IMG/VR virus record: IMGVR_UViG_3300009159_000084
Coordinates: 1-56,816 of that record
Source: a virus
Taxonomy: Duplodnaviria > Caudoviricetes
Direction: 5' to 3' (one strand)
DNA: 56,816 nucleotides
Both the position numbers and the translations under genes were made by a program. Positions 13,343 through 50,300 of this stretch are shown here, piece after piece. The notes below the pieces were generated by a model. That model worked only from the letters and a program-made list of their open reading frames with translations, was not told the DNA's origin and searched no databases. Positions within the stretch are counted from its first letter, which is position 1. Each line of letters opens with the position of its first letter.

Positions 13343-13425
13343 AAGAATTCTACGGACGCTGGAAATACTCCAAAAAGCGCGGGGCATGGATCTGGAAATG
13401 GAAAAAGCGTAAGGTCAACCCATGA
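13339..13425 (+). CDS. 28-aa Trp/Lys/Arg-rich peptide
   Basis: MKEFYGRWKYSKKRGAWIWKWKKRKVNP; ATGA overlaps at both ends; RBS AGGG. Confidence 0.5.
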   Translation: MKEFYGRWKYSKKRGAWIWKWKKRKVNP

Positions 13426-14555
13426 GCCTCACCCCCCTACGCGAACTCAAAGCACACCCCGAAAACGCACGCCTAGGAAACGTTGACCTCATCGCCCAAT
13501 CATTAGAACACCACGGGCAATACTCGCCCATCGTTATTAACCAAGACAACGTGATACTCGCCGGGCACCACGTTGCTCAAGCAGCAAAAAAACTTGGCTG
13601 GAAAGACATCGAAACAGTCCAAGTAACCGTCAACGCACAACAAGCCCGCAAAATCCTCCTCGCAGACAACCGCACCTCAGACCTCGCCACCTACAACGAA
13701 ACAATCCTCCTCGAACTCATCGAAGCGCTCCCCGACCTAGAAGGCACAGGATTCGGCCCGGCAGACATCGACGCCCTCGACGCCATCATCCACGGAGACA
13801 TCCCCGAACCCCCCACAAAAGGCGAAGAAACACCACCCACCGACATCGTGCAACTCAAACTCGGCCACGCCTTCCAAACAGACATCCCCCGCGACCACTG
13901 GGAAGCATGGAAAGACACCCACCTCACAGACATGAAACGCGGCAAAGCCCTCACCACCATCAAAACCATGCTCCAACTCCCCACCCCATCAAAACCCGAC
14001 CACACACCACCCAAAATCCCCGGCCTCACCGAAACCGTCCCCATACACGACATCACCCCACACCCCACCAACCCACGAGAAGGCGACATCGGGACAGTAG
14101 CCCAATCCCTCGAAACAAACGGCCAATACAAACCCATCACCGTCAACCGCACAACCGGCCACATCATCAAAGGCAACCACACCTACATGGCCGCACGCTC
14201 ACTAGGCTGGGACCGAATCAGCGTCCACTGGATCGACGTCACACTCGAAGAAGAAACCAAAATCCTCCTCATCGACAACCGCACAAGCGACCTCGCCACA
14301 TACAACACAGAAAACCTCAAAACCCTCCTCACAGAAATCCGCGACCTCACAGGAACCGGATACACGCCAAGCGACGCCCACGACATCCTCAACGGAGGCA
14401 CCACACGCCCCGGACCAAAACCCACAGGCCAAACACAAATGAAACTCGCAGAATACGGATGGCGAATGCCCACCGATCTCTACGAACAATGGGCCAACGC
14501 ACTAACCCTCCAAGATGTGATAGAACTACTCCAACTACACACACAACCCCAGTAG
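13422..14555 (+). CDS. Protein with two ParB/Srx N-terminal domains
   Basis: HP.N.R.G....A.SL...GQY.PI.....I..G.H..AA..LGW...DNRTSDLATYN occurs twice. Confidence 0.85.
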   Translation: MSLTPLRELKAHPENARLGNVDLIAQSLEHHGQYSPIVINQDNVILAGHHVAQAAKKLGWKDIETVQVTVNAQQARKILLADNRTSDLATYNETILLELIEALPDLEGTGFGPADIDALDAIIHGDIPEPPTKGEETPPTDIVQLKLGHAFQTDIPRDHWEAWKDTHLTDMKRGKALTTIKTMLQLPTPSKPDHTPPKIPGLTETVPIHDITPHPTNPREGDIGTVAQSLETNGQYKPITVNRTTGHIIKGNHTYMAARSLGWDRISVHWIDVTLEEETKILLIDNRTSDLATYNTENLKTLLTEIRDLTGTGYTPSDAHDILNGGTTRPGPKPTGQTQMKLAEYGWRMPTDLYEQWANALTLQDVIELLQLHTQPQ

Positions 14556-27150: not shown

Positions 27151-27687
27151 ATGAACTACGACCTCAGCACCGTTGAAGGTGCCCTGCAATTAGTAATTGA
27201 AGCCCACGCCGGGCAGGTGGATAAGCAAGGCCACCCATACATCCTGCACCTTGTTCGAGTCGGTGCATCACTTTGGCGGTTCGGTGATGACGCTGTTATT
27301 GCCGGATTGTTGCATGACGTAGTGGAAGACAGCGCGGTCACGTTGCAAGATCTCGCAAATTATGGCGCTTCACCTGCCGTAGTGAGCGCGGTTGCCTCGG
27401 TTACAAAACACACCTCAGAAGCCAATTGGGAGGACTATGAGGTCAGTATCCGTAAGGCTCTGGCCGATCCGGTGGGCAAGTGGGTTAAGGCCGCTAACGT
27501 GGCTGACAATGCCGGGCGTTTGGATGGGATCCCGTGGGGTCCGTTGCATAAGCGTTTGGAATCCAAGTATGAGAAGGCTGTTGCGTTGATTGCTACGGTG
27601 ATTCCGGGTTATCGGATTGATTTGGAGTTGCGTCCCGCGCGAGACATTTTTGATGATTTGTCGGATGCGGATTTCCGAGATCTATAG
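27151..27687 (+). CDS. HD-domain hydrolase, RelA/SpoT small alarmone hydrolase-like
   Basis: AHAGQVDK.G.PYILH, AGLLHDVVED, VKAANVADN. Confidence 0.8.
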   Translation: MNYDLSTVEGALQLVIEAHAGQVDKQGHPYILHLVRVGASLWRFGDDAVIAGLLHDVVEDSAVTLQDLANYGASPAVVSAVASVTKHTSEANWEDYEVSIRKALADPVGKWVKAANVADNAGRLDGIPWGPLHKRLESKYEKAVALIATVIPGYRIDLELRPARDIFDDLSDADFRDL

Positions 27688-28934: not shown

Positions 28935-30455
28935 ATGGCACCCCGGGTTGATCTAGGAGAACTAGGCACCTCTGGTCTTAAGCGGACCAGCGGATTTGTC
29001 TATGACGAATTCCTCACCCGACTACGCGGAATTCAGGGTGTACGCACCTACCGCGAAATGTCGGACAACGATCCCGTCATTGGCGCCGTGCTGTATGCCA
29101 TCGAGAAAGTTATTACCCGCCTTGAATGGCGCGTCGATCCCTACCGCGACAACACCCCTGACGGTGAACCAGACACAAACGATGTAGAAACCGCTGAGTT
29201 CATTGAATCATGCCTCAACGACATGAGCGACTCATGGGACTCAACGCTGTCACAAATTCTTTCCATGTGCATTTACGGTTGGTCATTCCACGAAATCGTA
29301 TACAAGCGCCGCATTGACCCCGAACAAAAAGATCCATCAAAGCGTTCAAAATACACCGACGGTAAAATTGGTTGGCGCAAGTGGGCTATCCGTGGCCAAG
29401 AAACACTCTACCTATGGACGTTTGATAAAGACGGCGGCATTCAAGGAATGCAGCAAGTCGATCAATACAGTGGACACGGCAACGTAGAGATCCCTATCGA
29501 AAAGGCTCTGTTATTCCGCACCACTGCAGCAAAAAACAACCCTGAAGGCCGCTCACTGTTGCGTAACGCTTTCCGCCCTTGGTGGTACAAGCGTCGCATT
29601 GAAGAAATTGAAGCCATCGGTATCGAGCGTGACCTTGCCGGTCTCCCAATCGCAAGCGTCCCACCGGAATACCTGTCAAGCACTGCCACTGCTGAACAAA
29701 AGCAAGTACTTGCAGCAATTCAGCAAATGGTCACGTCGATTAAACGCAATGAAAACGAGGGCATCGTTTTCCCAATGGTGTACGACGAATCAGGCCACAA
29801 ACTGTTTGACCTGACCCTGTTGAGTAGTGGCGGATCACGCCAATTCGACACAGACAAAATCATTTCCCGCATGGATGCCCGCATTGCTATGAGCGTCCTA
29901 TCGGACTTCATTCTCCTCGGTCAAGATCGCGTGGGTTCATTCGCTCTCGGTGCAACAAAAATGGATCTATGGTCCATGTCCGTTGACTCTATTGCTAAAA
30001 CCATTGCAGATACCGTCAATCAGCACGCCATCCCTCGCCTACTACGCTTGAATGGCATGGACGCTAGCCGTCCGCCCGTGCTGCAATACAGCGAAGTCGC
30101 GCACGTTGATCTTGCTGAGATCGCGGACTTCGTGGCGAAGATGACAACCGCTGGAGTGCTCGCACCGGATCCCGCTCTGGAAGATCACTTGCGTGAAGTT
30201 GCCGGTCTTCCACCCGCTTCGCATGACTTCCAAGACAGCGGATCGGGGCAGATGAGTGCCGATGACGTGAAGAACCTCATGGCCCTCCCGCCCGCTCAAC
30301 GTATCGTGGCTGAACGTACCGGTATTGTTCCCGATAAGCCTGCATTCCCCGGCGCACTGCCGAACGTGCAAAGCAAGAATCAGGAAAACAAACCGTCGTT
30401 CCCGGGTTCAGGTAACAACACTGAAAAGCCGGGCACTGATACCGCAACGGAGTAG
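28935..30455 (+). CDS. Portal protein (DUF935/Mu gp29-like)
   Basis: YREM..ND, YGWSFHEIVYK, NPEGRSLLR, GIERDLAG.P, GSFALG, IPRL..LNG. Confidence 0.88.
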   Translation: MAPRVDLGELGTSGLKRTSGFVYDEFLTRLRGIQGVRTYREMSDNDPVIGAVLYAIEKVITRLEWRVDPYRDNTPDGEPDTNDVETAEFIESCLNDMSDSWDSTLSQILSMCIYGWSFHEIVYKRRIDPEQKDPSKRSKYTDGKIGWRKWAIRGQETLYLWTFDKDGGIQGMQQVDQYSGHGNVEIPIEKALLFRTTAAKNNPEGRSLLRNAFRPWWYKRRIEEIEAIGIERDLAGLPIASVPPEYLSSTATAEQKQVLAAIQQMVTSIKRNENEGIVFPMVYDESGHKLFDLTLLSSGGSRQFDTDKIISRMDARIAMSVLSDFILLGQDRVGSFALGATKMDLWSMSVDSIAKTIADTVNQHAIPRLLRLNGMDASRPPVLQYSEVAHVDLAEIADFVAKMTTAGVLAPDPALEDHLREVAGLPPASHDFQDSGSGQMSADDVKNLMALPPAQRIVAERTGIVPDKPAFPGALPNVQSKNQENKPSFPGSGNNTEKPGTDTATE

Positions 30456-30457
30456 TT

Positions 30458-31576
30458 ATGGCGTTGACCATTGGTGGCAAGGGTCGCAATCCCGGCGGCT
30501 CTGGCCCTCAGGCCCCGCTTACCCCGTTGGAGCAGTCGCTCACTGAGCGTGTTGCTGCAGCATTGCGGGTATTGGGCACACAGATGGATCCCGATGCTTA
30601 CGCACGCGCTATAACGGCTCTTGATCCCGATCTGTTGGAACGTTTGCTTGCAAACATCAACATGGATCGCATTGACATGCTTATGCGTGACACGATGCGG
30701 GGCATTGTTATTAAGGGCGGCACTGAAGAGGCTCGCCGTATTTTGCGTTCTAATCCTCGAGCACAGTTCAACATGGATTCCGCTCTTGCCTATACAGGCC
30801 AGAAACTTGAATCAGGCATTATCCTGCCGGGTAGTCAACTGCCACCCCCTCCCGGTATCGAGTTTGCTCTTGAAACCCCCGTTGAGCGAATGTTTAACAC
30901 GATCAGCACCCGGGCGACCGATTATGCGACAACACGATCAGCGCAACTCGTGCGCGAGATCACTGACGCTAACCGTCTCGCTATTCGTCAAGTAATCTCA
31001 CAGGCATTCACAAAACCTCGGACAGTGGACGCTACAGCCCGTGAACTACGGCAAATTGTTGGCCTTCATCCACGGTGGGCTCGTGCCGTGCTGAATTTTG
31101 ATGAAAAGAATTTCACGGCCATGGTGAAGGCCGGTGTGTCACTCGATGATGCCCGTGCCCGTACCGATAACTTGACGAAAAAGTATCGAGATAAGTTGAT
31201 TCGTCGCCGCGCTGAAATGATTGCCCGCACTGAAGTGCAACAGGCTCAAAACTTTGGTCGCGCTGCATCATGGGAGGCGTCAGATAAAGCCGGTCTCGTG
31301 GATCCCACCTCGATGAAAGAATGGCGCACGGCGCCTCGTGGGTCGAGTTACGGGGAGCCATGTGACGAATGTGCTGCTATGCGGGGCACGCGGGTACCTT
31401 GGAACGGAACGTTTGGTAATGGTGACGTAATGCCACCGGCTCATCCTCATTGCCGCTGTACAGCCGTTCTTGTCCCGCCTACTCGTGGGCTTGAAGGATT
31501 ACCTTCTCAGGATCTTGGTTCATGGATTACTCAATTGGATGCGTTGGAAGCGCAAGATGCGGCGGTTACCTCATGA
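30458..31576 (+). CDS. MuF/SPP1 gp7-like head morphogenesis protein
   Basis: RAEMIARTE, K.W, CDEC, PPAHPHCRC. Confidence 0.88.
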   Translation: MALTIGGKGRNPGGSGPQAPLTPLEQSLTERVAAALRVLGTQMDPDAYARAITALDPDLLERLLANINMDRIDMLMRDTMRGIVIKGGTEEARRILRSNPRAQFNMDSALAYTGQKLESGIILPGSQLPPPPGIEFALETPVERMFNTISTRATDYATTRSAQLVREITDANRLAIRQVISQAFTKPRTVDATARELRQIVGLHPRWARAVLNFDEKNFTAMVKAGVSLDDARARTDNLTKKYRDKLIRRRAEMIARTEVQQAQNFGRAASWEASDKAGLVDPTSMKEWRTAPRGSSYGEPCDECAAMRGTRVPWNGTFGNGDVMPPAHPHCRCTAVLVPPTRGLEGLPSQDLGSWITQLDALEAQDAAVTS

Positions 31577-33399
31577 CCGAAATCTATTTTGAGCCCGGTC
31601 TTACTCCCGTTTTGAAGCATCCCGGTCATTCCGATCAAAAAGTTCATGGGCGGCGCGGCCCCGGCGTGTCAGTAAAACCTGAAGTCGCTGGATCCATCCT
31701 TGAGCGGGTAAAAGCCAATGGTGGCTTGTCGGTGAACATGCTTGACGGGTCGGAGCCAACTACTGGGTTCATGGTCGCTAAGGGCGGCACTAAGGGCGAC
31801 ATCGTTGATGCGGATGAATTCTTTGACGCTAAGAAAGGTCCGGCTCATCTTTCATCATTTTTGAAGACACATAAAGCGTCCCTAACTAAGGGTTCATACC
31901 TCGGGTTATGGCACAACACTGAAGATGGTAAGGTCTACCTCGACGTATCCGACAACATCAAGGATCGTGGGAAAGCAATAACTGCAGGGAAACGGCGTAA
32001 CCAGATTAGTATTTGGGACGTCGCTAATTTTAAGGAGATCGGTACAGGTGGCACAGGAGAACTCGCCAAAGAAATTGCAGGCAGTGGAGTTGCCGGATTT
32101 GTCGACGGCTACGGACGAAGAGATCGACAAGTACGCGCAACAGATCTGGGAGAAGTTCGCTCAGACTCAGTAGTCGTAAAGTTTGCTCCCGGTCTTGTTC
32201 CTTTGTTGAAGCACGGTGATCTTTCACGCCCCGGGTATGCGGCAATGCACCCCGATAGTCAAGGACGAATCGGTGTACACACCGGTCGACGCACTGACGC
32301 AAAAAATCAAGCAAAAGCAGATGCAAACCTTATTCATGAGGCGACCTCGCTGGAGGCGCTACCTGCCGATATGCAAGGTCGAGTCAACGAAGGTCTCACA
32401 ACCCTCGGTATTACATCAGATCAAATGGATGCAAACATTGAAGCAACCCTCAGTCGAGCCAATATCGACGGAGCAGATCCCGCTGGACAAAACTGGTACG
32501 GCGACGCAAACGCCGCATCTAAAGACATATCAGAACGATATGGCGTAACTCATGAACAATCCGCCGGGATGATTGCAGCGACAAGCCCACAGCAACCGTG
32601 GGGCGATAACGTTACAGCGGTTGAATACATGGCTAAAGCAACAAAAGAAAACCACGAAATTCAAACTGGCGCCCTCATGGATCACCAACGCACTAAAGGC
32701 AAGGGCGATACTCGATCACTTTACGAATGGGCAAAATCGGAAGTAGATGGCCGCACTATGGATGGCGAAATACACAACATGCCGGCCATTGCAGAACTAC
32801 AGGGCAAGCGCATGTCGGACATTAAAGATCCTTATGTGCGGGCCGCTTTGATGAAGGCTCAAGCCCAAATGGGTTACCGTGTTTCAGGTATCGGCACAAA
32901 TAAAGATGGGCAATCGTTGAAAACGGTTGACGATCTCACCGGTCTTGTAGCCCCCGTCAAATTTACTTGCGGCGTTCAACATCTTGGCCGTGCGGTGAGG
33001 ATTTCTGATGGAGAGCAACCGGACATGGTGCTTAATGGGCATAAAGTTCGTTCGTTCTATAACAACATTCGCAATCCTAAAAGTAAGCACGATGACATTA
33101 CGGTTGATTCTCATGCTTTCAGTATTGCGATGGGTAAAAAGTACGGTTCGGGGTCCGATGAATACAAGTATTTCAGCGGTTCGGGTTGGAAGGCACGCGG
33201 TGCCTCACCGGTTTCGAACAAAACGCTTGGGGTTTCGGGTCTTTATCCCGCGTTTGCTGACTCTTATCGCCGGGTAGCAGCAAAACATGGACTGTCAGCG
33301 CATCAAGTGCAATCCATAACGTGGGTTCAATGGCGTAAAGACAACCCCGATCAAACTCGTGGTGGACAAATGGCTAGGGAGGCCGCAAATGCCGGATAA
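31573..33399 (+). CDS. Two-module head-associated polyprotein (tagged domain plus HhH-like domain)
   Basis: F.PGL.P.LKH leader twice; HPGHSDQKVHG tag; C-term WY..SPQ.W..N / KVRSFYNNI / TVDSH / QSITW; ATGA-coupled to MuF. Confidence 0.7.
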   Translation: MTEIYFEPGLTPVLKHPGHSDQKVHGRRGPGVSVKPEVAGSILERVKANGGLSVNMLDGSEPTTGFMVAKGGTKGDIVDADEFFDAKKGPAHLSSFLKTHKASLTKGSYLGLWHNTEDGKVYLDVSDNIKDRGKAITAGKRRNQISIWDVANFKEIGTGGTGELAKEIAGSGVAGFVDGYGRRDRQVRATDLGEVRSDSVVVKFAPGLVPLLKHGDLSRPGYAAMHPDSQGRIGVHTGRRTDAKNQAKADANLIHEATSLEALPADMQGRVNEGLTTLGITSDQMDANIEATLSRANIDGADPAGQNWYGDANAASKDISERYGVTHEQSAGMIAATSPQQPWGDNVTAVEYMAKATKENHEIQTGALMDHQRTKGKGDTRSLYEWAKSEVDGRTMDGEIHNMPAIAELQGKRMSDIKDPYVRAALMKAQAQMGYRVSGIGTNKDGQSLKTVDDLTGLVAPVKFTCGVQHLGRAVRISDGEQPDMVLNGHKVRSFYNNIRNPKSKHDDITVDSHAFSIAMGKKYGSGSDEYKYFSGSGWKARGASPVSNKTLGVSGLYPAFADSYRRVAAKHGLSAHQVQSITWVQWRKDNPDQTRGGQMAREAANAG

Positions 33400-33550
33400 C
33401 ACAATTGATACACGCACTAACCCGGAAGAACTTGGTGACCTTGTAGCCCCATGGGATCGCTTTCTTGACGGTGAATCTGCAGCATTCTATGACTTAAGTG
33501 AGGAAGAGCAAAGAAATGCAAAAGCAAACTTCCCTTTGCTCTGTCCATAA
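33389..33550 (+). CDS. Small acidic protein, candidate immunity
   Basis: RBS AGGGAGG; 53 aa, D/E-rich; overlaps upstream stop. Confidence 0.5.
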   Translation: MPDNTIDTRTNPEELGDLVAPWDRFLDGESAAFYDLSEEEQRNAKANFPLLCP

Positions 33551-33598
33551 CGCGGTAACCTTAGACAGACCAAACCCTGATTTGAATGAGGCCAGAGC

Positions 33599-36571
33599 GT
33601 GACTGATACAGCGACCCGTCTTGCGGGGCTCTCGGATGAGCGCCTCATGTCCCTACACAAAGCAGCGGACAAAAAAGCCCCTGTCGACGCGGCCCAAATT
33701 GAAGCACATCACCTTATTGCTACAGAATTGTTGAAGCGCGGACTAGAACACGGCCATAATGACGATTCTTGGGCCTCTGCAGTCATCATTAAAGACACTG
33801 TAGGCATTTCCTCACCGGAAGAAATTGACGCCCCAGAGGGCATGGAAAAGGCTTGGGCTGAAACGCTGAAAGATGGCGGCACGGTCTCAATTTTGCTCAC
33901 AGTTGACGGTTACGTCCTCAAAGCAGATCCAACTGTCTCCGATGTCCACGTCGATGCCGTAATGGGGGGCCGTCGCCGTCGCCCATTAGACAAAGCCGAA
34001 TGGAAAGAGGGAGACTTCGCGGTCTGGGGTTCCTCCGGCGGATCAGCCAGAGGACAGATCGAGCACATCATGCGGGAAGGAGTCCTCGGTATACCCGATA
34101 GCGACTTTAGTATTGAAGCCACGGAAGATGATCCGGCTGTTCTGCTGCGGATCTTCCGTAAAGGTCCTAAAGGTTGGGCTGCAACAGAGACCCTCGTAGG
34201 TCACAAGATGTCTGCCCTTAACCCCATCGAAGACTTGATTAAGGAAGCGGGCTATCAAGTACCCGAAGGGGTGCAATCCGCTGCTAAAACTGCCCTCAAG
34301 TGGATCGCTGATGGTCAATCGGGTGACGGGTTCACGTCAGTTGGTAGAAATAGAGCCGATCAACTCGCCTCCGGTGGAACTGTAAGTCGCGCAACCCTCG
34401 TTAAGATGAGGGCCTATTTCGCTCGACATTTTGTGGATAAAGAGGCTGAGGGATGGGGAGACCGCACTGATCCAACCCCCGGTATGGTTGCTTGGTATGC
34501 GTGGGGCGGTGACGCTGGCCGCACATGGGCGAACACAATACTAGGCAAGGTCGAGAAGCGCGCCATCCCAGAAGCGATCACAGATCTACACATAAACATT
34601 GAAAACCGTCAGCACGCTATAGACGAATATTTGTATGGCCCAATGAATCCTGAGGAGCCCGGTGACTACTGGGAGCGACTGGGCGCAGTTTGGGATGTTT
34701 CCGCAGAAGAGGCTTTCACAACCCACTGCGGAAATTGCTCTGCCTTCAACATCACGCCAGAAATCCGCACCGCTATCGCTGACGCTATCGGGGAAGGCGG
34801 CGAAGAGGTAGTAACCTCCGCCGACCTCGGCTACTGCGAACTGTTTCAGTTCAAATGTGCTGCCGCCCGTTCCTGCTCCGCTTGGCTGGTTGGGGGGCCA
34901 ATTGGATTATCCGACGAAGAAGAAGATGGGGAGATTGAACTTCTTGCCTCCATGGATCAACAAGATCTTACAGATTTTGCTAGTTACGCCTACCTCGCTG
35001 ACGAAAACAGCATAGACAAGGCTGGTAACCCTGAATCGTTGCGCGATTATTGGCGCGGCGGCGGCAAGGGCAAAGTGTCATGGGGTGCCGGTGGAGATTT
35101 TACTTCATGTGTCGCCGCTGTAGGCAAGTACATGAGCAGCGAGCAGGCTAAGGGCTATTGCGCTATTCGTCACCGTGAGGTTACGGGAATGTGGCCGGGA
35201 GATAAGCGCAACCGTATGAAGAAAGAATCAACCGTTGTGTTGAAGCATCCGGGTCACAGTGATCAAAAAGTTCATGGCGGTCATGGTGGTGGCGCGGGTA
35301 CTGATCTTTCCCCTGAAGGCAAGACTCTTATCAAGCAGAATCTTTCACGCGGCAATCTTGTCGAGTCCTACGGTGCGTCATATGATCACGGCAAGGCGGC
35401 AAAAGCATTTGGTCAAGATCACGTCGACCGTAAAGTAAGCGAGTCCGTTGGTAAGCGCGATGCGTTGATCAGTCAACACGCCGGTAAGACACGTTCTCAC
35501 GCTACTGAAGGTGCGGCGTTTTCTGTTGCCTCACATCAAGGTTTCATTGATGGGGCCATGGGACGTAAAGCACAGTTTGCTCGGTCACATAACTTTGGTG
35601 AAACTGTCGCTGGATTCTTTGGCGCTGGCCTATCTGGTGCGACTAAGGCTCGTGAACCGTTCGAGAAACATCCGGGTCACTCTGATCAGTCAGTCCATGG
35701 CCGTAAGGGTGGAGGATCTGCAAGCGCTGGGGCTAAGGCTCCCGCAAAGGTCGAACCTAAGACTGGTGTTAAGCGTCCCGGTATGGGCGACGGTACAAAA
35801 GTAAGCGACGAAGATTTTGCTAAATTAAAAGACGGATCCGCTGGGGCGCATATTATTGGGCGCGACAAAAACGGCGCTCCTATTTTCACCCCGGAACGTC
35901 AAGCGCTCCACGATAAAATTGTTCTTGACTCAGTAACAGGGGTGCCTACTTCAAAAGATTTGACTTACAGTATGCTCGGGGGAGGCCCCGCTGCTGGAAA
36001 GTCAAGCATGGAATCCAAAGTTATTGGTGACTATAGAGGGAAAGCCGTTGCCGTTAATTCAGACAACGTAAAAGTGCAACTTCCTGAATTTCAAGCAAAA
36101 ATTGACAGCGGCACTACTGGTTCTGAAGCCGCAGCGTTTGTGCATGAAGAATCTTCATACGTTGCAAAACGTGTTCAACAAGCCGCATTTGAGCGTCGTC
36201 AAGACGTTGTGCTTGATGGCACGGGTGATTCAAGCGCTGAAGGTTTGCAGGGAAAAATAGATAAAGCGCATAAACTTGGTTATACAGTCAATGGATATTA
36301 CGCGACTCTTCCAACTGAGACTGCCGTTCGGTTAGCGAAACAACGCGAAGCAGAAACTGGTAGAGGTGTTCCTGAACACACTATTAGAGGGACACATAAA
36401 TCAGTTTCGCAAGTTTTTCCAACTGCGGTTAAAGGTATGGACAAAATTCAATTATTTGATACGTCTGATTTTTCGGCAGGCCCTAAATTGATTGCCGAGG
36501 GAAGTAAAGGCCGTTTAATTATCCGCGACGCGGATGCTTACGAGTCTTTCTTAAATAAGGGGAATGAATAA
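33599..36571 (+). CDS. Multidomain head-associated polyprotein with C-terminal zeta-toxin (P-loop kinase) domain
   Basis: GGGPAAGKSS, VNSD..K, HEES, VVLDGT, R..ETGRGVP; two HPGHSDQxVHG tags; several small upstream domains. Confidence 0.8.
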   Translation: MTDTATRLAGLSDERLMSLHKAADKKAPVDAAQIEAHHLIATELLKRGLEHGHNDDSWASAVIIKDTVGISSPEEIDAPEGMEKAWAETLKDGGTVSILLTVDGYVLKADPTVSDVHVDAVMGGRRRRPLDKAEWKEGDFAVWGSSGGSARGQIEHIMREGVLGIPDSDFSIEATEDDPAVLLRIFRKGPKGWAATETLVGHKMSALNPIEDLIKEAGYQVPEGVQSAAKTALKWIADGQSGDGFTSVGRNRADQLASGGTVSRATLVKMRAYFARHFVDKEAEGWGDRTDPTPGMVAWYAWGGDAGRTWANTILGKVEKRAIPEAITDLHINIENRQHAIDEYLYGPMNPEEPGDYWERLGAVWDVSAEEAFTTHCGNCSAFNITPEIRTAIADAIGEGGEEVVTSADLGYCELFQFKCAAARSCSAWLVGGPIGLSDEEEDGEIELLASMDQQDLTDFASYAYLADENSIDKAGNPESLRDYWRGGGKGKVSWGAGGDFTSCVAAVGKYMSSEQAKGYCAIRHREVTGMWPGDKRNRMKKESTVVLKHPGHSDQKVHGGHGGGAGTDLSPEGKTLIKQNLSRGNLVESYGASYDHGKAAKAFGQDHVDRKVSESVGKRDALISQHAGKTRSHATEGAAFSVASHQGFIDGAMGRKAQFARSHNFGETVAGFFGAGLSGATKAREPFEKHPGHSDQSVHGRKGGGSASAGAKAPAKVEPKTGVKRPGMGDGTKVSDEDFAKLKDGSAGAHIIGRDKNGAPIFTPERQALHDKIVLDSVTGVPTSKDLTYSMLGGGPAAGKSSMESKVIGDYRGKAVAVNSDNVKVQLPEFQAKIDSGTTGSEAAAFVHEESSYVAKRVQQAAFERRQDVVLDGTGDSSAEGLQGKIDKAHKLGYTVNGYYATLPTETAVRLAKQREAETGRGVPEHTIRGTHKSVSQVFPTAVKGMDKIQLFDTSDFSAGPKLIAEGSKGRLIIRDADAYESFLNKGNE

Positions 36572-36573
36572 AG

Positions 36574-37440
36574 ATGGCTAAAGCAAGTGATATTTTTTCA
36601 ATTACCGCAGAAATAGTGCGTGGCAAAGAAAAAACAGATAGTTTGGTTCCGTTGGATTCTGAATTATCTGAATTATGGGATTTGATTGCGGCAGATGTTG
36701 CTGCATCTCCTGAAACTATTTGGGATATTCCAAGCGAAAATCCTGATATCGATACGGATGATCTTGCATATATGGATGAGCCTGCAACAAAAAGTATCGG
36801 TATCGAGTCAGATGAATTAACGCTCGTATCTAAAGCCGTGCCAGAGCGTATGTTCACCCTTGGCCCGATGTACATCCCCAATCGCATGGATGCACACGCC
36901 GAATGGACAGACCCCGATGAACTACAGAAAGCCGTTTGGGAATACGTCCGCAAGGGTGACCGTCGCATCAGGCTGCAACACAACCGCGATGTAGTAGCAG
37001 GTGAGTTCGTTGAAGTCATGGCATGGCCGTATCCCGTTGAAGTACCCATGGTGCAAAAAAGCGGTGCTACAACAAACATGACTTTCCCCGCTAACACTGT
37101 TTTCCTTGGTGTCGTGTGGGAGCCATGGGCATGGGAGTTAGTGAAGAACGATAAGTTACGCGGCTACTCAATCGGCGGCCGTGCCGAGCGCCTTCTCGCT
37201 GACCTTCCTGAAGAGTACGTCGGTAAGGCTATGGCACCGTTTGAAGACGCTATCCGCATTGAGGCTGAAGATTCACCTCAGCAACCAATCGACATTGGGC
37301 AGCAGATCGCTACCGCTGTCGCTGAAGCAATGAAATCAATTAGTCCTACCGTTAATGTCGTCATGCCTGAAGACAAGCCTAAGATTAGGCGCGTCGAACG
37401 TGATGATCACGGCAATATTTTACGAATCGTTGAGGAGTGA
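36574..37440 (+). CDS. XkdF-type prohead serine protease with acidic N-terminal extension
   Basis: G.MYIPN..DAH.EW...EL.KA, LQH, W.LVK..LRGYSIGG. Confidence 0.82.
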   Translation: MAKASDIFSITAEIVRGKEKTDSLVPLDSELSELWDLIAADVAASPETIWDIPSENPDIDTDDLAYMDEPATKSIGIESDELTLVSKAVPERMFTLGPMYIPNRMDAHAEWTDPDELQKAVWEYVRKGDRRIRLQHNRDVVAGEFVEVMAWPYPVEVPMVQKSGATTNMTFPANTVFLGVVWEPWAWELVKNDKLRGYSIGGRAERLLADLPEEYVGKAMAPFEDAIRIEAEDSPQQPIDIGQQIATAVAEAMKSISPTVNVVMPEDKPKIRRVERDDHGNILRIVEE

Positions 37441-37796
37441 CAGTGGGCTTAGTAAACGATGGAAAAAATCTTATGCTGACCGGGTTCACCGGATCGGTGC
37501 GATATGTTTCTTTGCACACGGGCGACCCTTCCACTAATGGTGCTAACGAAGTTACGGGCGGATCGTATACCCGTGAGAGTGTGGTGTGGGCCGCCGCTGC
37601 GAGTGGATCTGTTTCTAGCGCGTCCGTTATTGTTTTCGATGTCCCCGGTTCGAACACGATCACTTACCTTGGGTATTGGTCGGCTGTGACGGCGGGAACG
37701 TTTTATGGTTCACGCGCTTTAGATACGTCTCAGTCCTTTGCCACAGCGGGTACTTACACAATCGCTACCGGAAACCTGACTGAATCACTTTCATAG
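37437..37796 (+). CDS. Virion structural protein
   Basis: YVSLHTGDP..GANEVTGGSY.R motif. Confidence 0.6.
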   Translation: MTVGLVNDGKNLMLTGFTGSVRYVSLHTGDPSTNGANEVTGGSYTRESVVWAAAASGSVSSASVIVFDVPGSNTITYLGYWSAVTAGTFYGSRALDTSQSFATAGTYTIATGNLTESLS

Positions 37797-37798
37797 CC

Positions 37799-38392
37799 AT
37801 GGGCGGTTTCGATACTCCGATCACCTATGACGACCCGCGAATTCTTTACGGGTCAGCAAACGTTTCCTATGACGGAAATCCTTTACTCACCGGTTCAGTG
37901 TATGGCGTTTCGACTGCAGTCATTGCGGTCACGCTGTCTCCAAACTTAAACGGGGCTGCTACCGGATCAACTGGATCTGCGGGTCTTGCGACCGGAATCA
38001 TGGGCCACTCGGGTTCAGTAACAGGATCAACTGCCACTTCAGGATCAAATAGAGGGGCCCCACGGTTCACGGGAGTTATCTCCGGGGCAACGACTAGCAA
38101 CGGATCTGTTGCGGGCTACGAAGGCGATTCAGGGCTTATTTCCGGGTCAACGGTGAGCACCGGGCTGGTCATCGGTACGCCTTACATCCCAGAACCACCC
38201 GCACCGCCTGAGCCGAATCAAACATCAGGCACTTTGCCACTCATGTTTTCTCCCGAGCAATCAAAGGCCCCATATCTCACCTTCACTGCGACCCTTAGTG
38301 GTATTAGTATTGTTACTGGCGGAGTAGCGGGCATGAAGCGAATCCGTGAAGACGATGATGTTGAAGTGTTCACATTGCTGGGATTGCTTTAA
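37799..38392 (+). CDS. Virion structural protein with G/S/T repeats
   Basis: Repeated G..SG.T.S.G units. Confidence 0.55.
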   Translation: MGGFDTPITYDDPRILYGSANVSYDGNPLLTGSVYGVSTAVIAVTLSPNLNGAATGSTGSAGLATGIMGHSGSVTGSTATSGSNRGAPRFTGVISGATTSNGSVAGYEGDSGLISGSTVSTGLVIGTPYIPEPPAPPEPNQTSGTLPLMFSPEQSKAPYLTFTATLSGISIVTGGVAGMKRIREDDDVEVFTLLGLL

Positions 38393-38444
38393 GTGTGCTT
38401 GTAGACTTACCTAGCGGGTAAGGTACTTTACTAGAGGAGTAACA

Positions 38445-38960
38445 ATGTTTCTGTCCAATGACAATGGGGTAAGTACCTCATTCGCTAAGCAGGCCACGCC
38501 AATGTTTAAGGCAGCCCCTGAAGTTGTGGCAGTACTACGCCCCTTGCTCGCTGACGTGTACGCCATGCAGACCGCTGTTCAGGGCGCTCACTGGAACGTG
38601 CAGGGCACTGACTTTGCTCAATACCATGAACTCTTCGCTGAGATCTATAGCGATGTCGCGGACAGCATTGACCCGCTCGCTGAGAACATCCTTAAGGCCG
38701 GCGGGCTCGCTGTAGCGTCCCTGACCGACATGCAGGCCCTCCGTACCACCACTGACCCGGTAGAGTCCCGCGATGCACGCCAATTGGCTATCGGTCTTGC
38801 TGCAATGAATGACGCCGTGCTCGTGCGGATCAATGCCGCATTCCTTGTGGCCGAGTCACAGAATGAGCCGGGCATCTCGAATTTCCTTGCTGACCGTGAC
38901 GACATGCACAAGAAGTGGCGCTGGCAGTTGCGTGCATCTCTTGGTGAGCCTGTTGGCTAA
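38445..38960 (+). CDS. dps: Dps / ferritin-like protein
   Basis: AHWNV.G..F...HELF..Y.......D..AE, NFLADR...H.K..W.L. Confidence 0.9.
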   Translation: MFLSNDNGVSTSFAKQATPMFKAAPEVVAVLRPLLADVYAMQTAVQGAHWNVQGTDFAQYHELFAEIYSDVADSIDPLAENILKAGGLAVASLTDMQALRTTTDPVESRDARQLAIGLAAMNDAVLVRINAAFLVAESQNEPGISNFLADRDDMHKKWRWQLRASLGEPVG

Positions 38961-39153
38961 CCCCCTGCCTGATGATCTGCCTCCGCTGTTGCGGGCGTGG
39001 ATTGAGCAGTTGCTGTCCGATGACGTGGTGAAGTTTGTTCGGGCGTTTCCTGATGCTCAGGTTGACGTGCGGTTGTCTGCCGTTAAAGGAAAAGTTCGTG
39101 CGCGTCCTACTGTTGTAATCAATGGTGGTCCGCAAACAATGCTGGAAATCTGA
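38953..39153 (+). CDS. Hypothetical protein
   Basis: Fills the gap; start codon uncertain (TTG). Confidence 0.45.
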   Translation: MANPLPDDLPPLLRAWIEQLLSDDVVKFVRAFPDAQVDVRLSAVKGKVRARPTVVINGGPQTMLEI

Positions 39154-39214
39154 CCCCACATATTTCACGGCCGTAAGTAACGTAAAAATTGGATAACTAA
39201 ACTCACTTCCCCAA

Positions 39215-39232
39215 CCGGGGTCGTGCTAATCT
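39215..39232 (+). promoter_or_regulatory. Promoter of scaffold/capsid operon
   Basis: aaCCGGGG-tcg-TG-c-TAATCT. Confidence 0.55.
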
Positions 39233-39310
39233 TCTGTTAGTCGAGACCTGCGGGTCGTCGCCCACTTAACGTGGATGGCGGCTCGCTTTTTAATGCAGGG
39301 AGGAACTGGT

Positions 39311-40108
39311 ATGTCACGACCGGCTCGCAAGATGGTCAATCTATCCATCGAAGAGACATCCGGTGTCGATCATCCGGCACACCTGCATGAGGGATGGCTA
39401 GTAATGAAAGCAGCCTCGGATGACGCGGTATTAGAAGCACTGGATGACAGTGTTGAGTCGCCGAGTGACGTAACCGAAAAGTCAACCGAGGAGGTTCCCA
39501 TGGAGACCACTGAAGAAGTAAAGGCTGAAAAGCCTTCGTACGAAGATCTTGAAAAGGCCCTTGCAGAAGCGACTGAGAAGATCGCTGAAATGGCAAAGGC
39601 CGCAGAGCCAGAAGAAACAGAAGCAGACGCTGAAGACATCATGAAGTCAGCACCTGAAGAATTCCGTAAGGCTTTCGAATCAATGCAGAAGTCAATCGAC
39701 GACGCTGTTGCAGCGAAGGAAGCCACTGAGGCTGAACTTCGCAAGGAACGTGGCGAACGTGCTGACGCTGATGCAATCGTGAAGGCACGCGATGCTTTCG
39801 CACACCTCGGCCTCGACGCCGAGCAGGTTGGCCCGGCCCTGCGCCGTTTGGCTGAAACCGATTCTGATCTCGCTAAGTCCGTTGAAGACGTACTCACCGC
39901 TGCTAACGCAAAGGTCGAGTCGGCTGACATTTTTAGTGAGATCGGTAAGTCTGCCCGTCCGTCGGGAAGTTCTTACGAGCAAGCCGAAGCAATGGCTAAG
40001 GCTGCAGTTGCAGGCGGAAAGTCCGCAACATTTGAGCAGGCTTTGGCAGCCGTGTACACGGAGCAGCCAGAACTGTACAACCAATACCTCGCCGAGCAAG
40101 GGAAGTGA
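39311..40108 (+). CDS. Capsid scaffold protein with N-terminal protease-like strand
   Basis: Acidic coiled coil, many xxK-A/S sites; N-term LSIEETSGVDHPAH; RBS GGGAGG. Confidence 0.75.
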   Translation: MSRPARKMVNLSIEETSGVDHPAHLHEGWLVMKAASDDAVLEALDDSVESPSDVTEKSTEEVPMETTEEVKAEKPSYEDLEKALAEATEKIAEMAKAAEPEETEADAEDIMKSAPEEFRKAFESMQKSIDDAVAAKEATEAELRKERGERADADAIVKARDAFAHLGLDAEQVGPALRRLAETDSDLAKSVEDVLTAANAKVESADIFSEIGKSARPSGSSYEQAEAMAKAAVAGGKSATFEQALAAVYTEQPELYNQYLAEQGK

Positions 40109-40529: not shown

Positions 40530-41510
40530 ATGCCACAGCCAACAATCAGCAGCGTCCATATTGATGCGATCCTGACTAACGTCTCGATTGCATATATGCA
40601 GCAGGCTCAGAACTTTATCGCAGATAAGGTTTTCCCTATCGTTCCTGTCGATAAGAAGTCAAACAAGTACTTCACCTACTCAAAGAACGATTGGTTCCGT
40701 GACGAGGCTCAGCGCCGCGCTCCGGGTACTGAATCAGCCGGTGGCGGTTACACGCTTTCGACCGATTCATACAGTGCAGATGTGTGGGCATTCCATAAGG
40801 ATGTCGACGATCAGACACTCGCTAACGCTGACACCCCTCTAAACCCTCTTCGTGAGGCTGCAGAGTTTGTCACCTCCCGTTTGCTGCTCCGTCGTGAAGT
40901 TCAGTTCATTACTGACTACATGGCTGCAGGCGTATGGGGCACCACCGCATCGGGTGTTTCTTCCGCTAGCCCATCTACAAATGAGTTCACTCAGTGGAGC
41001 GATTACGCTAACTCGGATCCAATCGAGACCATTGAAGCAGCAAAGGCAACAATTCTTAGCAGCACAGGCTACGAGGCCAATACCCTCGTACTTGGCTACG
41101 ACGTGTTCCGCAAGTTGAAGAATCACCCTGACGTAATTGATCGTTACAAGTACACGACCGCTAACGTCATCACTGAAGACATGCTTGCACGTCTGTTCGG
41201 TGTTGACCGTATCCTCGTGGCTAAGTCAGTGCGTGCAACCAACGCTGAAGGCGCTACTGCGGCTTACGGTTTCAACTTCGGCAAGGCTGCTTGCTTGCTC
41301 CACGTTGCACCAAATCCGGGCTTGATGACGCCATCCGCTGGCTACATCTTCGCTTGGACCGGTGTTTCAGGTGGCCTCGGTTCAACCATCGGTACTTCAC
41401 AGTTCCGTATGGAATACTTGAAGGCAAGCCGTGTTGAGGCTGAAGTTGCGTTCGACAACAAGGTTGTCGCCACGGACCTCGGTTACTTCATGACCACTGC
41501 GGTTGCTTAA
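40530..41510 (+). CDS. Major capsid protein
   Basis: H.D..LTN.SIAY.Q..FIAD.VFP.VPV, W.DY.NSDP, PSAGY.F.W. Confidence 0.88.
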   Translation: MPQPTISSVHIDAILTNVSIAYMQQAQNFIADKVFPIVPVDKKSNKYFTYSKNDWFRDEAQRRAPGTESAGGGYTLSTDSYSADVWAFHKDVDDQTLANADTPLNPLREAAEFVTSRLLLRREVQFITDYMAAGVWGTTASGVSSASPSTNEFTQWSDYANSDPIETIEAAKATILSSTGYEANTLVLGYDVFRKLKNHPDVIDRYKYTTANVITEDMLARLFGVDRILVAKSVRATNAEGATAAYGFNFGKAACLLHVAPNPGLMTPSAGYIFAWTGVSGGLGSTIGTSQFRMEYLKASRVEAEVAFDNKVVATDLGYFMTTAVA

Positions 41511-47316: not shown

Positions 47317-50300
47317 GTGGCTCAGGTAACTGTAACCGCGCAGTATGTTGCCGACACTACCTCGTATGTTAATAACGTACGCAAGGCCACGGACGCCACC
47401 AACTCTTTTGCAGCATCATTACCCAACGCGGCACGTTCTCAAGACGCTGTTAAAACATCAACAATTGCTCTCGGTACAGCGATGGGCACTCTTGGCGCTT
47501 CAGTTCTTGCTAAAGCCGCTGCCGCTGTAAAAAACTTCGCTATGCAGGGCATTCGCGCTGCTGCTCAATATGAACAAACCGTAATTTCCATGAAAGGAAT
47601 CTTCCAAGGTTCCGGCATGGACGTGCAGGAGGCTGCAAAGAAAACCGAATCCTACCTCGGTGAATTGCGTGACTTCGCTGCCAAGACTCCGTTTGAATTA
47701 CCTCAAACCCTTGACGCTGTTAAGCGACTTCTATCTATCGGCTATGCCGCTGACGATGTAAAAGACCGTTTGCTGCCTGCCATTGGTGACATCACTTCCG
47801 CCCTCGGCCAACCTGCTTCAGCAATTAACGGTGTGGTGTATGCGTTTGGACAGATGAAATCTGCTGGACGTGTCATGTCTCAGGACTTGATGCAGATAGG
47901 TAATCAACTTCCCGGCTTTAACGCAAAAATGACCCTTACTAAGGAACTGTTCAACGGTGACGTTGGGGCGATGGCTAAGGCGATGGAGTCCGGGTCTTTG
48001 GATTCGACTAAGGCTATTGACGTTTTGATTGAGGGAATGAAGAAATTCCCGGGTGCTGCCGGCGCTATGGAACGTCAATCTAAATCGCTTAATGGTGTTA
48101 TCTCGACGTTTAAGGACACAGTAAACAATGCGTTGATTGATGGCATCATGCCGGCAATTCCGGCTTTGTCTGGAACGCTTGAGGGTCTTATCCCACCGGT
48201 TGAGGCTGCAGCAAAAGCCTTTGGCGATAACCTTGGTCCATTGTTGATTCAAGCCGCTGAAATTATGAGCGCGTTTGGTCCTATTGTTACTGCCGTTATT
48301 CCTCCTTTGATGCAATTGACTTCGGCCACCGGTGGTATCACCGTAATTTTGAAGGCCCTTTCTCCGGTCATTGTTGCCGCCGGTAACGCCTTGGGGATTA
48401 TTGCTAGTGCGTTTAACATTTTGCCGGGACCAATCAAGGACGCTATCGGTGTCATGATTGCCTTGCGTTTAATCATGTTCAAACTAAATGTTGATGCAGC
48501 AAAAATGTCGGCAGGAATGACTGCGGCCTTTGCCAAAATTTTCATGGTATTCAAAATGACAATGAATGGCATGAAAACCCAAATGATTGCGTCTACAACG
48601 CAAATGGGTGCTTTGGGTGCTGCCGCTAAATTCCTTGGCATGGGAGTAGTAAATTCGTTCCGCACCATGGTTATTGCTGCTAAATCATTTATGGTTTCTC
48701 TTGGCCCTATAGGCTGGGCATTGATTGCCGCTTCTGCCGCAATGGAATTCTTCATGGGCAAGAGCGCCGCTACCGATGCCGCCGTGTCTCAGTTGAAAGA
48801 AACTATTGACGCTACCACCGGAGCACTCAATGAAATGGGTGTGCAATACATATCTTCTGAGTTCCGAACCAATATTAGTCAAGAAGATTTAGACATTCTT
48901 AAAAAGTACGGCATCACCATGGAAGAAATGATTGCTGCAGCCGATCAGGGCGGCGATGCTATGGAATCATTTAAGACCAAAATGGCCGGAATAGATGCTA
49001 AAGATTTTGGTTTGCTCTCGGCAACGATCATGGATCCGGTTAAAACTATTCAAAATACTGTCGAAGGTATGAACGAGTATGTTACCGCTGCTAGAGAAAA
49101 GTCTGGTATCGATAAACAAGCCGCTAGAGACGCAAAATCTTACACAGGTGCTTTAAGCGGTCAAACTGCTGAGGTAAAAAAATCTAATACTGAAATTTAT
49201 CTTGCCGCTGTTTACGCAAGACGAGGCACGGATGCTACGCAGGTTTTAACAACTGCAATTAATGGTGCAACGTTTGCTTACAAAAAGTTTAATGACACGT
49301 TGAGTGTTCAAGAGCAATGGGATAACGCAATAAGTTCAAGTAATGATCTTGCTGACACCCTGAAAAAGAATGGTCAGCAGTTTGATAACACCACAAAAAA
49401 GGGTCTTGAAAATCGTGCTGCTATTCGTGACACGGCTAAGGCTTGGATTGAGTACGCTGATGCTGCTAACGATCCGATTATTAAACAGAAACGTCTTGCT
49501 GAGGGTGAAGCGGCAATGCGTAGAGCGCTTAAAGGTAAATTTGATTCTAAGGAACTTGGTGTTGTTCAAGCGTTTAAGAATGCACAGAAAGAAACTAATC
49601 TCGGTGCTGATGCTTGGGATAAGGAAAAGAAGGCGGCGTCTGGCGCGGGTATTGATGTTGGAACAAACTTTGTTAACGGTATTGCTGAAGCATTAAAGGC
49701 CAAGAAGCAAGAAGTGGAAACCGCTGCTGGCGAGACCGGTACAGCAATGCTTACCGGTGCTAATAACGCTATCGCTGCTAAATCTCCTTCTCGTGAGGCA
49801 ATGAAAGTTTCCGGTAACTTTATTGACGGCATCGTGGTTGGCCTTAAAGCCCGTACAGGTTTGGTACTTAAAGGAAGCGCGGCAGTTGGTCAAGAACTGT
49901 TGGCCGGTGTTAAGGATGCCCTGAAGTCCGGAGGAAATATTTCGGGTTTGCTTTCCGGTGTGTTTGGTTCAATGCCTGAAATTCCTACCCCGCTTGAGGC
50001 TGCTCTTGGTAAGAAGGGTGCGGAGAGTTACCTGAAGAAGCATAAGAAGGAACTTTCTGCATTGCAGCAAGCCTTTGGTGATATGGACAAACTTAACGAG
50101 ACCATGAAGACAGCGAAGGCTGCTTTGATGGAGATCGGTGACGCAAGCAAGCAGATTTCTGGCGTGTACAGGGGTGCGACTCTCACTGAGGCCGGTTCGG
50201 ACATTATTAGTGCGCTCGGTAAAGAGGGCAATCTTTCGAGTGCGATGTCGATGCTCGCTCAATTGGGCGCATCGGCTGACGCTGCTTATGATTCTTTGAT

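Follow-up and report, generated by a model that had tools for sequence, protein, structure and literature searches.

A short peptide, K-HPGHSDQ(K/S)VHG, occurs three times in the head-gene region of viral record IMGVR_UViG_3300009159_000084 (Duplodnaviria; Caudoviricetes), a 56.8-kb record with a completeness rating of 94% that was analyzed over its whole length of 56,816 nucleotides, here called the window. This peptide, hereafter the tag, is very probably a modular header of cargo encoded in phage head modules. Each copy stands in front of a different domain in one of two polyproteins (A and B), and by its alignments the window tag is a local variant of a widespread header, approximately [K/E/N]-H-(L)-P-G-x-H-D-Q-x-x-H-G-[R/G]-x-G-G, that precedes unrelated modules in head-module polyvalent proteins and also opens many small stand-alone proteins. 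The residue preceding the tag tracks the family of the head protease, and this link is new. The account that we favor, with a probability of about 0.5 for the whole, is a two-part junction in which a cut site matched to the phage's own protease is followed by a header retained on the cargo, which would be packaged, released, and injected.

A first reading of the window from its letters alone (the sequence-only reading) had reported three tags that are conserved as peptide and diverged at synonymous sites, a longer leader present twice in A, and an unrelated domain behind each tag, and had taken the tag for a packaging or processing address that lets the phage plug new effectors into its head. 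A six-frame scan bore out the description. HPGHSDQ.VHG was matched exactly three times (31618-31650, 35246-35278, and 35669-35701), each with K in front (codons beginning at 31615, 35243, and 35666), all on the plus strand and inside open reading frames (ORFs) A and B only. As a degenerate DNA pattern the tag was found three times forward and never in reverse within the record, and the backwards-read control gave no match. The leader F-x-P-G-L-x-P-x-L-K-H is present at 31588-31620 and 32182-32214. Copies of the tag DNA diverge mainly at third codon positions, with TCC, AGT, or TCT as the Ser codon, and tags 1 and 2 encode an identical peptide with 5 of 32 bases different; this synonymous divergence argues that the peptide is under selection and that the copies did not arise by recent duplication of the DNA. 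In an AlphaFold2 (AF2) model of B residues 536-720, built with an 8-row alignment, the predicted local distance difference test score (pLDDT) was <50 over most of the leader, tag, and Gly linker of tag 2 (model residues 1-31) and over most of the region of tag 3 (model residue 137 to the end). The tags would therefore behave as short linear motifs in flexible linkers.

The modules that follow the three tags are indeed unlike one another, being a phrog_17808 domain, a helical module, and a zeta-toxin-like kinase, respectively (Table 1). Polyprotein A is ordered as leader, tag 1, phrog_17808 module, second leader with a degenerate header, and DUF7178 module. Its first module gave tblastn matches to hypothetical proteins of Rhodococcus and Fusobacterium phages, and in the ESM Atlas it matched only unnamed viral clusters (score 0.85). 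The helical module of B consists of four helices (model numbering 37-46, 49-69, 71-92, and 99-119); no fold match was found in the PDB by Foldseek at E <= 0.001, and the ESM Atlas returned no hit. The zeta domain of B scored 78.1 bits against a cut-off of 22.3, contains the P-loop GGGPAAGKS in its translation, and matched PDB entry 1gvn at E 1.8e-4. The gene order of MuF, polyproteins, and prohead protease given by the sequence-only reading was upheld by ORF coordinates, Pfam, and PHROG. Polyprotein A starts at an ATG that overlaps the stop codon of MuF, and the protease gene begins 3 bases past the end of polyprotein B, whose Atlas record begins at residue 17.

Table 1. Features of the window that bear on the tag, in order of position
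Feature	Position	Strand	Evidence or remark
Portal protein, Portal_Mu family	28935-30455	+	PF06074 E 3.2e-43; phrog_113 portal E 1.5e-90
MuF-like head morphogenesis protein, separate ORF	30458-31576	+	PF04233 E 4.7e-10, residues 237-336
Polyprotein A, 608 aa	31573-33399	+	ORF; Pfam and PHROG matches
Leader FEPGLTPVLK and tag 1 (HPGHSDQKVHG at 31618-31650), then linker RRGPG	31588-31650	+	Six-frame scan
Cargo module 1 of A, about residues 27-195	31651-32157	+	phrog_17808 E 7.7e-10, residues 65-152
Second leader FAPGLVPLLKH, then degenerate header GDLSRPGYAAMHPDSQG in place of the HDQ core	32182-32214	+	Six-frame scan
DUF7178 module of A	32404-33372	+	PF23802 E 5.7e-33, three stretches; phrog_3842
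Polyprotein B, 990 aa from GTG	33599-36571	+	ORF; alternative start is the ATG at residue 17
N-terminal head-associated part of B, about 540 aa	33599-35221	+	phrog_2859 domain, Cys-rich HiPIP-like stretch, phrog_6439 domain
Tag 2, K-HPGHSDQKVHG, with STVVL before and GHGGGAG after	35243-35278	+	Six-frame scan
Helical cargo module, B residues about 567-665	35297-35593	+	AF2 pLDDT 85-95
Tag 3, K-HPGHSDQSVHG, with AREPFE before and RKGGGSASAG after	35666-35701	+	Six-frame scan
Zeta-toxin-like kinase domain, C-terminal cargo of B, residues 789-942	35963-36424	+	PF06414 E 8.2e-22
XkdF-type prohead serine protease, Peptidase_S78_2	36574-37440, domain 36823-37191	+	PF14550 E 5.6e-11
Ferritin/Dps-like gene, without tag, between protease and scaffold	38445-38960	+	PF00210 E 5.1e-13
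Scaffold-like protein	39275-40108	+	phrog_13547 E 5.5e-61
Major capsid protein	40530-41510	+	phrog_1005 E 2.4e-102; PF03864

The tag is far from unique to this phage, as judged by its matches elsewhere. We aligned 40 residues around each of six tags, three from the window and three from two viral contigs matched by the DNA pattern, and the resulting 40-column profile was searched against 1.84 billion proteins. At E <= 1e-3, 160 representative proteins were recovered, with a maximum of seven matched stretches in one protein (P0015). Among the 146 listed proteins new to the profile search, a regular expression found the tag in 135, as one copy in 82, two in 32, three in 12, four in 8, and five in 1. 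In 58 of these 135 proteins the first tag fell among the N-terminal 40 residues, in 52 at residues 41-110, and in 25 deeper; a median of 184 residues separated a tag from the one following it or from the end of the protein. A word-index search with the tag alignment recovered giant proteins of 1638-1961 residues with five to six copies of KHPGH[SAQ]DQK[SV]HGR between zeta-toxin, ADP-ribosyltransferase, and other modules; the variants KHLPGKHDQKSHG, KHGSHDQKDHG, and EHGDHDQQTHG occur in the same giant or tagged proteins. With a DNA pattern for PGxHDQxxHG, >119 stretches were matched in viral contigs. The matches listed comprised 95 unique contexts, about one-fifth of which look like off-frame noise; H stands at -2 in 76 of them and K at -3 in 55, neither being part of the pattern, and Arg then Gly is commonest after HG. 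An origin of the tag by chance or low complexity was rejected on the conservation of these flanking residues outside the search pattern.

Relatives of polyprotein A connect the window form with the canonical one. Polyprotein A shares 65% identity with residues 632-1226 of P0005, a 1232-residue protein with three further tagged modules upstream, and in this orthologue the canonical KHLPGKHDQKSHG aligns position for position with tag 1 (KH-PGHSDQKVHG), so the two forms are one element. In the stand-alone proteins P0111 and P0131 the leader before HPGH is only MSVK, and the functionally conserved part therefore appears to lie after the K. The tblastn search of an annotated phage collection with the 40-residue canonical tag region, a short query run with the low-complexity filter on, gave no match. 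Bacterial genome contigs held at least 120 stretches of HPGHxDQxxHG, nearly all of them off-frame in GC-rich genomes. Genuine-looking tags among the matches listed from bacterial records (L168, L171/L180, L215, and L271) come from a Chitinophagales metagenome-assembled genome (MAG), a Micromonosporaceae MAG, Rhizocola hellebori, and an Anaerolinea MAG, and presumably belong to prophages or mis-binned phage contigs.

Two other header types were found at equivalent places. The degenerate header of A is also present at the corresponding place in P0005, and a comparable one, LLKHGEPDRAGYELLHPGG, stands ahead of the P0161 cargo. The form shared by the window (32182-32290), P0005, and P0161, LLKHG[D/E]xxR[P/A]GY..[M/L]HP, precedes two different modules, namely DUF7178 in A and P0005 and an alarmone-synthetase-like domain in P0161. 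This recurrence makes it appear a distinct sub-type of header and not a decayed one. P0113, an 837-residue metagenome protein, carries two HDQ tags and, at residue 516, VVVKFNPNHDARGRFGTGG, which begins with VVVKF as does the second leader of the window. This stretch belongs to another header type, F-N-P-N-H-D-A-R-G-R-F-G-T-G-G, which lacks the three His and occupies a place equivalent to that of the HDQ tags, so the function of the header is probably not tied to three histidines.

Comparison of B with its relatives indicates that modules are swapped between phages as cassettes at the tag, in keeping with the plug-in of new effectors that had been proposed. B shares 66% identity with P0006 through its residues 1-710, until approximately eight residues past tag 3, and the two are unrelated thereafter: B ends in a zeta toxin, and the C-terminal domain of P0006 matches the small alarmone synthetase of PDB entry 8vx3 at E 3.7e-10. 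The middle module of B is common to eight proteins, four with Zeta in precomputed Pfam annotation and four with an alarmone-synthetase-like end, as judged by the PDB match for P0006 and by sequence reading for P0009, P0159, and P0161. Orthologous junctions of these relatives carry the header sub-variants KHPGH.DQ, KHEAHDQ, KHGAHDQ, and KHLAGKHDQ, and the P0161 junction carries the degenerate LLKHGEPDRAGY..HP form, which resembles the second leader of A. The N-terminal part of B gave tblastn matches under "capsid maturation protease" and to HiPIP genes of phage DSL-LC01, which shares these domains and in which no tag was found among the eight genes examined. In record G009 the N-terminal part of the protease ORF (L283:11235-12320) comprises the phrog_2859-like and Cys-rich stretches of B. 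The B cargo cassettes therefore appear to have been inserted between accessory domains of the protease and its catalytic domain.

The cargo behind the tag is diverse across the wider set; the tag does not keep to a single following domain, which supports a modular label before unrelated effectors. Pfam families were tallied in 122 tagged representatives (13 tagged proteins >1000 residues were excluded): ADP-ribosyltransferase (ART) was found in six, DUF7178 in five, GNAT in four, and a PI3/4-kinase-like domain in three. ClpP, Phage_portal, Phage_min_cap2, Zeta, RelA_SpoT, Gln_amidase, and others were singletons, and most of the 122 proteins match no Pfam family. In individual proteins the domains behind tags include Zeta_toxin, ADPrib_exo_Tox (three ADP-ribosyltransferase stretches), GNAT, PI3/4-kinase-like, DUF7178, DUF3626, LigT/2H, Gln_amidase, and a weakly matched RadC.

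Head proteases were surveyed in 54 tag-bearing viral records, 24 with the HPGH form and 30 of >=20 kb with the canonical form, and each record was classed by the residue preceding the first His of its tag; the 54 records represent few head-module lineages rather than independent events, and the tallies are uncorrected for relatedness. The preceding residue tracks the head-protease family, K/R going with XkdF/HK97-type proteases, N with ClpP, and E with a protease fused to the capsid protein. The 42 records of the K or R class held S78_2 in 23, S78 in 6, ClpP in 1, phrog_15531 in 0 of 35 searched, and none of these in 12. Four of the five N-class records had ClpP, the fifth, a fragment 21% complete, having none of the four families, and three of the five E-class records had phrog_15531, with none of the four in the other two. 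Both records of the F or H class lacked all four. In L141 the capsid protein and the phrog_15531 "head maturation protease" form a single fusion. Past the HG of the tag, the residues, inspected by eye, followed no protease-class pattern. In the 24 HPGH-type records PF04586 was matched in none, and neither was the T4-type protease PF03420, a search whose control also matched nowhere. The HK97 protease cleaves its capsid protein after Lys, and T4-type proteases cleave after Glu; these specificities fit the K and E classes only loosely, the E-class protease being of a different family. We know of no published cleavage site for the XkdF-type family.

S78_2 was present in 23 of the 54 tag-bearing records versus 1 of 30 untagged viral records of >=20 kb, a background set with only off-frame or context-less hits to the pattern. 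For each of the 16 records in which an S78_2 or ClpP domain was located, the closest strict tag lay 55 bp to 7.7 kb from the protease, so that where position was checked the tag kept to head modules, and in G008 and G013 it follows the protease domain inside one 1146-residue frame. The B-like polyprotein P0162 is itself fused to an S78_2 protease. Other head components are less constant: MuF was matched in 26 of the 42 records examined for it, including 11 of the 17 rated >=90% complete, and portal families vary, from Portal_Mu in the window to an HK97-type portal in P0008, where the tag lies in the portal C-terminal extension. Of the packaging or processing address first proposed for the tag, the modular label in head-module genes stands; MuF is not obligatory, the portals differ, and a two-part junction element is favored over an address.

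The window protease itself is well supported as a Peptidase_S78_2 member (43 bits against a cut-off of 24). Across a 15-row alignment the Ser of GYSIGG and an Asp are invariant and the His of LQH is near-invariant, and this Ser and His are the predicted catalytic residues. Directly ahead of the protease domain, LVSK-A is found in the window and in L299, L291, L290, and L292, and LMSK-A in P0162. The scaffold-like protein may likewise be cut after Lys, in its N-terminal ETSGVDHPAHLHEGWLVMK-AASDD (LVMK-A), a stretch that G005 and G009 share with the window. Cofolding the protease domain, with the same 15-row alignment, and a leader-plus-tag peptide scored 0.16 against a mark of 0.32 in a run without controls.

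We therefore favor the following account, in which the element is taken as two-part because its core is constant whatever the head proteins and the preceding residue varies with the protease family. The three tags would be junction elements of two head-module polyvalent proteins, set in flexible linkers. The first part of each, a short hydrophobic leader ending in Lys (PVLK, VVLK, or PFEK), would be the cut site of the XkdF-type protease encoded downstream; the second, the invariant His/Asp/Gln core with its Gly/basic linker (HPGH-x-DQ-xx-HG-RxGG), would become the new N-terminus of the released module. A and B would be built into the prohead along with portal, MuF, scaffold, and protease, and the protease would then cleave after the Lys of each leader, freeing the phrog_17808, DUF7178, and helical modules and the zeta-toxin kinase inside the closed shell. 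The freed modules would exit with the DNA at infection, and the shared header would permit their exchange between phages as cassettes. Cleavage at the K-H junction, the presence of A and B in virions, and injection are all inferred from sequence; to cleavage by the head protease taken alone we give even odds.

Several observations weigh against the proteolytic half of this account. The core is invariant across different protease folds, and the protease is therefore not what constrains it. If the tag were only the primed side of a cut site, there would seem to be no point in cleaving a stand-alone protein four residues into its sequence. Hydrophobic-x-K occurs at many other places in these proteins, so the additional sites proposed for protease and scaffold count for little. 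The association between preceding residue and protease is confounded by relatedness, K with S78_2, N with ClpP, and E with phrog_15531 each representing few lineages, and G025 is a K-type record with ClpP matches. The four protease families were not found in 17 of the 54 records, many of which are fragments, although G044, G051, and G052 are rated 100% complete, and the search for phrog_15531 took in 47 of the 54, leaving out G028, G035, G037, G038, G039, G040, and G042.

A bolder version of the junction, which we hold only tentatively, would make HDQ-xx-HG a signal portable across phage families. It would mediate retention in the prohead and exit through portal and tail with the DNA, being read by something common to all tailed-phage heads or by a metal ion, with only the preceding residue tuned to the phage's own protease.

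The tag might instead be purely an address, a capsid-targeting sequence bound by scaffold, portal, MuF, or capsid interior, with cleavage incidental or absent. Such a label would account for the position of the first tag, among the N-terminal 40 residues in 58 of the 135 tagged proteins and at residues 41-110 in 52 more, for the leader and tag with which polyprotein A opens, and for a core conserved far beyond the needs of a cut site, and there is precedent in T4, where N-terminal propeptides of 10-19 residues direct unrelated and foreign proteins to the core, according to the text of PMC9026906. We nevertheless consider it unlikely. One label would suffice, yet the tag stands before every module, up to six times by regular expression in P0001 and in seven stretches in P0015, and such repetition along a single polypeptide is more like that of a junction than of an address. 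There is also no constant candidate for a reader: MuF was not found in some near-complete records, the portal, capsid, and protease families all vary between carriers, and a phage-encoded reader would be expected to coevolve with the tag and let it drift.

Near-invariance could also follow from chemistry rather than from a coevolving partner, if the three His with Asp and Gln (H-x2-4-H-x0-1-D-Q-x-x-H-G) bind Zn or Ni or act autocatalytically, needing no partner peculiar to the phage; in the capsid such a motif might compact or protect the linkers, or a metal might help it to cleave itself. As this idea would have it, the His, Asp, Gln, and Gly positions hardly change among carriers with four or more types of protease and several families of capsid and portal, and their flanks vary freely. 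It is nonetheless quite improbable, since no solved structure has the motif (a PDB profile search gave two chance hits only, at E ~4), AF2 predicts no fold, though it models no metals, and headers lacking the chemistry occur in its place, both the P0113 type without three His and the degenerate header of A (GDLSRPGYAAMHP), which has no DQ core and is kept in P0005 all the same. That the tag is only a recombination joint, a DNA homology patch for cassette exchange encoding a functionless peptide, is highly improbable even though homology of B with its relatives breaks at the tag, because the three copies differ synonymously, with Ser codons from different families, because the peptide and not the DNA is what persists in distant phages, and because the strict DNA pattern recovers two other viral contigs versus 160 protein clusters by peptide profile.

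Known systems place A and B among the phage-type polyvalent proteins, with packaging in the virion and delivery predicted. Polyvalent proteins were described by Iyer, Burroughs, Anand, de Souza, and Aravind (2017, J Bacteriol; PMC5512222), whose main text predicts that they are packaged, injected, and processed, names zeta-toxin-like kinase, RelA/SpoT, ART, and GNAT among their components, and reports fusions to MuF and portal. The likeness lies in unrelated conflict or effector domains joined in one polypeptide among virion genes. B combines phrog_2859, phrog_6439, helical, and Zeta_toxin domains and A combines phrog_17808 with DUF7178, so that each has at least two unrelated domains; both genes lie between portal/MuF and protease/scaffold/capsid; and an S78_2 peptidase gene, predicted to act on A and B, adjoins B. 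The same main text describes an "assemblin-like" head peptidase at the C-terminus of some polyvalent proteins, predicted to process them, and P0162 shows this arrangement; in the window, unlike in the fusions described there, neighboring ORFs of their own encode protease, MuF, and each of the two polyproteins. No conserved interdomain motif is described in the main text of PMC5512222, supplements aside, where "linker," "glycine," and "low-complexity" have no occurrence.

The capsid targeting sequence of the T4 internal proteins is the nearest functional analogue of the tag. According to the text of PMC9026906, it is a removed N-terminal propeptide of 10-19 residues that can carry foreign proteins, and so resembles the tag as a short peptide shared by unrelated proteins, linked to head loading and to processing by the prohead protease, and proposed as a plug-in device. 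There is no sequence likeness between the two, and the conserved targeting part of T4 precedes the cut, whereas the tag core follows the presumed cut, is repeated internally, and spans head-protein families. T4-type propeptides are N-terminal and cut after Glu by an S77 protease; two of the three window tags are internal, the protease is S78_2, and Lys precedes the tag. The MuF polymorphic toxins of temperate phages (Jamet et al. 2017, BMC Biol; PMC5576092), whose toxin and MuF domain form one protein, offer a likeness in their association with MuF and in variable C-terminal cassettes, including alarmone-synthetase- and kinase-type ones as in the relatives of B. As the sequence-only reading had noted, the window effectors lie on separate polyproteins: MuF has its own stop codon, and neither A nor B contains a MuF domain by Pfam, so that strictly they do not count as MuF polymorphic toxins. 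The text of PMC5576092 has no occurrence of "motif," "linker," or "cleav." No description of the tag motif was found in the papers searched on MuF toxins, capsid targeting, and polyvalent-protein processing, supplements aside; polyvalent head cargo is thus known, and a widespread junction header is apparently undescribed.

Downstream of the protease, the head module continues with a Gp80-like head protein, a 197-residue Gly/Ser-rich protein, the ferritin/Dps-like protein, the scaffold-like protein, a 132-residue protein, and the major capsid protein. The gap between protease and scaffold genes (37437-39274) holds the Gp80-like, Gly/Ser-rich, and Dps genes in the window, and two small tagged proteins instead in G009 (L283:12281-13851) and G005 (L280:3029-4526); the latter proteins, of 238-286 residues with the tag at approximately residue 65-100, had no Pfam or PHROG match. 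On this comparison the gap looks like an insertion hot spot. The scaffold-like protein opens (39275-39410, plus strand) with LSIEETSGVDHPAHLHEGWLVMK, a stretch kept in G005 and G009 that we take to be similar to a C-terminal strand motif of HK97-type proteases, and its N-terminus may be a remnant of a protease-scaffold fusion. The 63-residue ORF at 33359-33550 (plus strand), in the 200-base gap between A and B, had no Pfam match. Shortly upstream of the head module lies a gene for an HD_4-domain protein (27151-27687, plus strand; PF13328 E 2.8e-9), the domain type found in (p)ppGpp hydrolases; because relatives of polyprotein B carry alarmone-synthetase-like cargo, it may be a self-protection or counter-measure gene. 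Elsewhere on the plus strand the window encodes a ParB_N-domain protein (13422-14555), a group-1 glycosyltransferase (6334-7386), and a 1498-residue tape measure protein (47317-51813), the last of which suggests a long-tailed phage.

Proteins carried in the head and injected are the first move of phages against host defenses and are hard to recognize from sequence. A header marking such cargo would directly list candidate injected effectors of uncultured phages, and the residue beside it would report the head-protease specificity of the phage. The link of the header to the XkdF-type protease gives a first guess at the specificity of that family, and the processing predicted by Iyer et al. now has specific predicted cut sites that can be mutated. 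If the portable-signal reading is true, a single profile would list injected effectors in metagenomes, most of them of no known family, and the tag could be used to load chosen proteins into unrelated phage heads.

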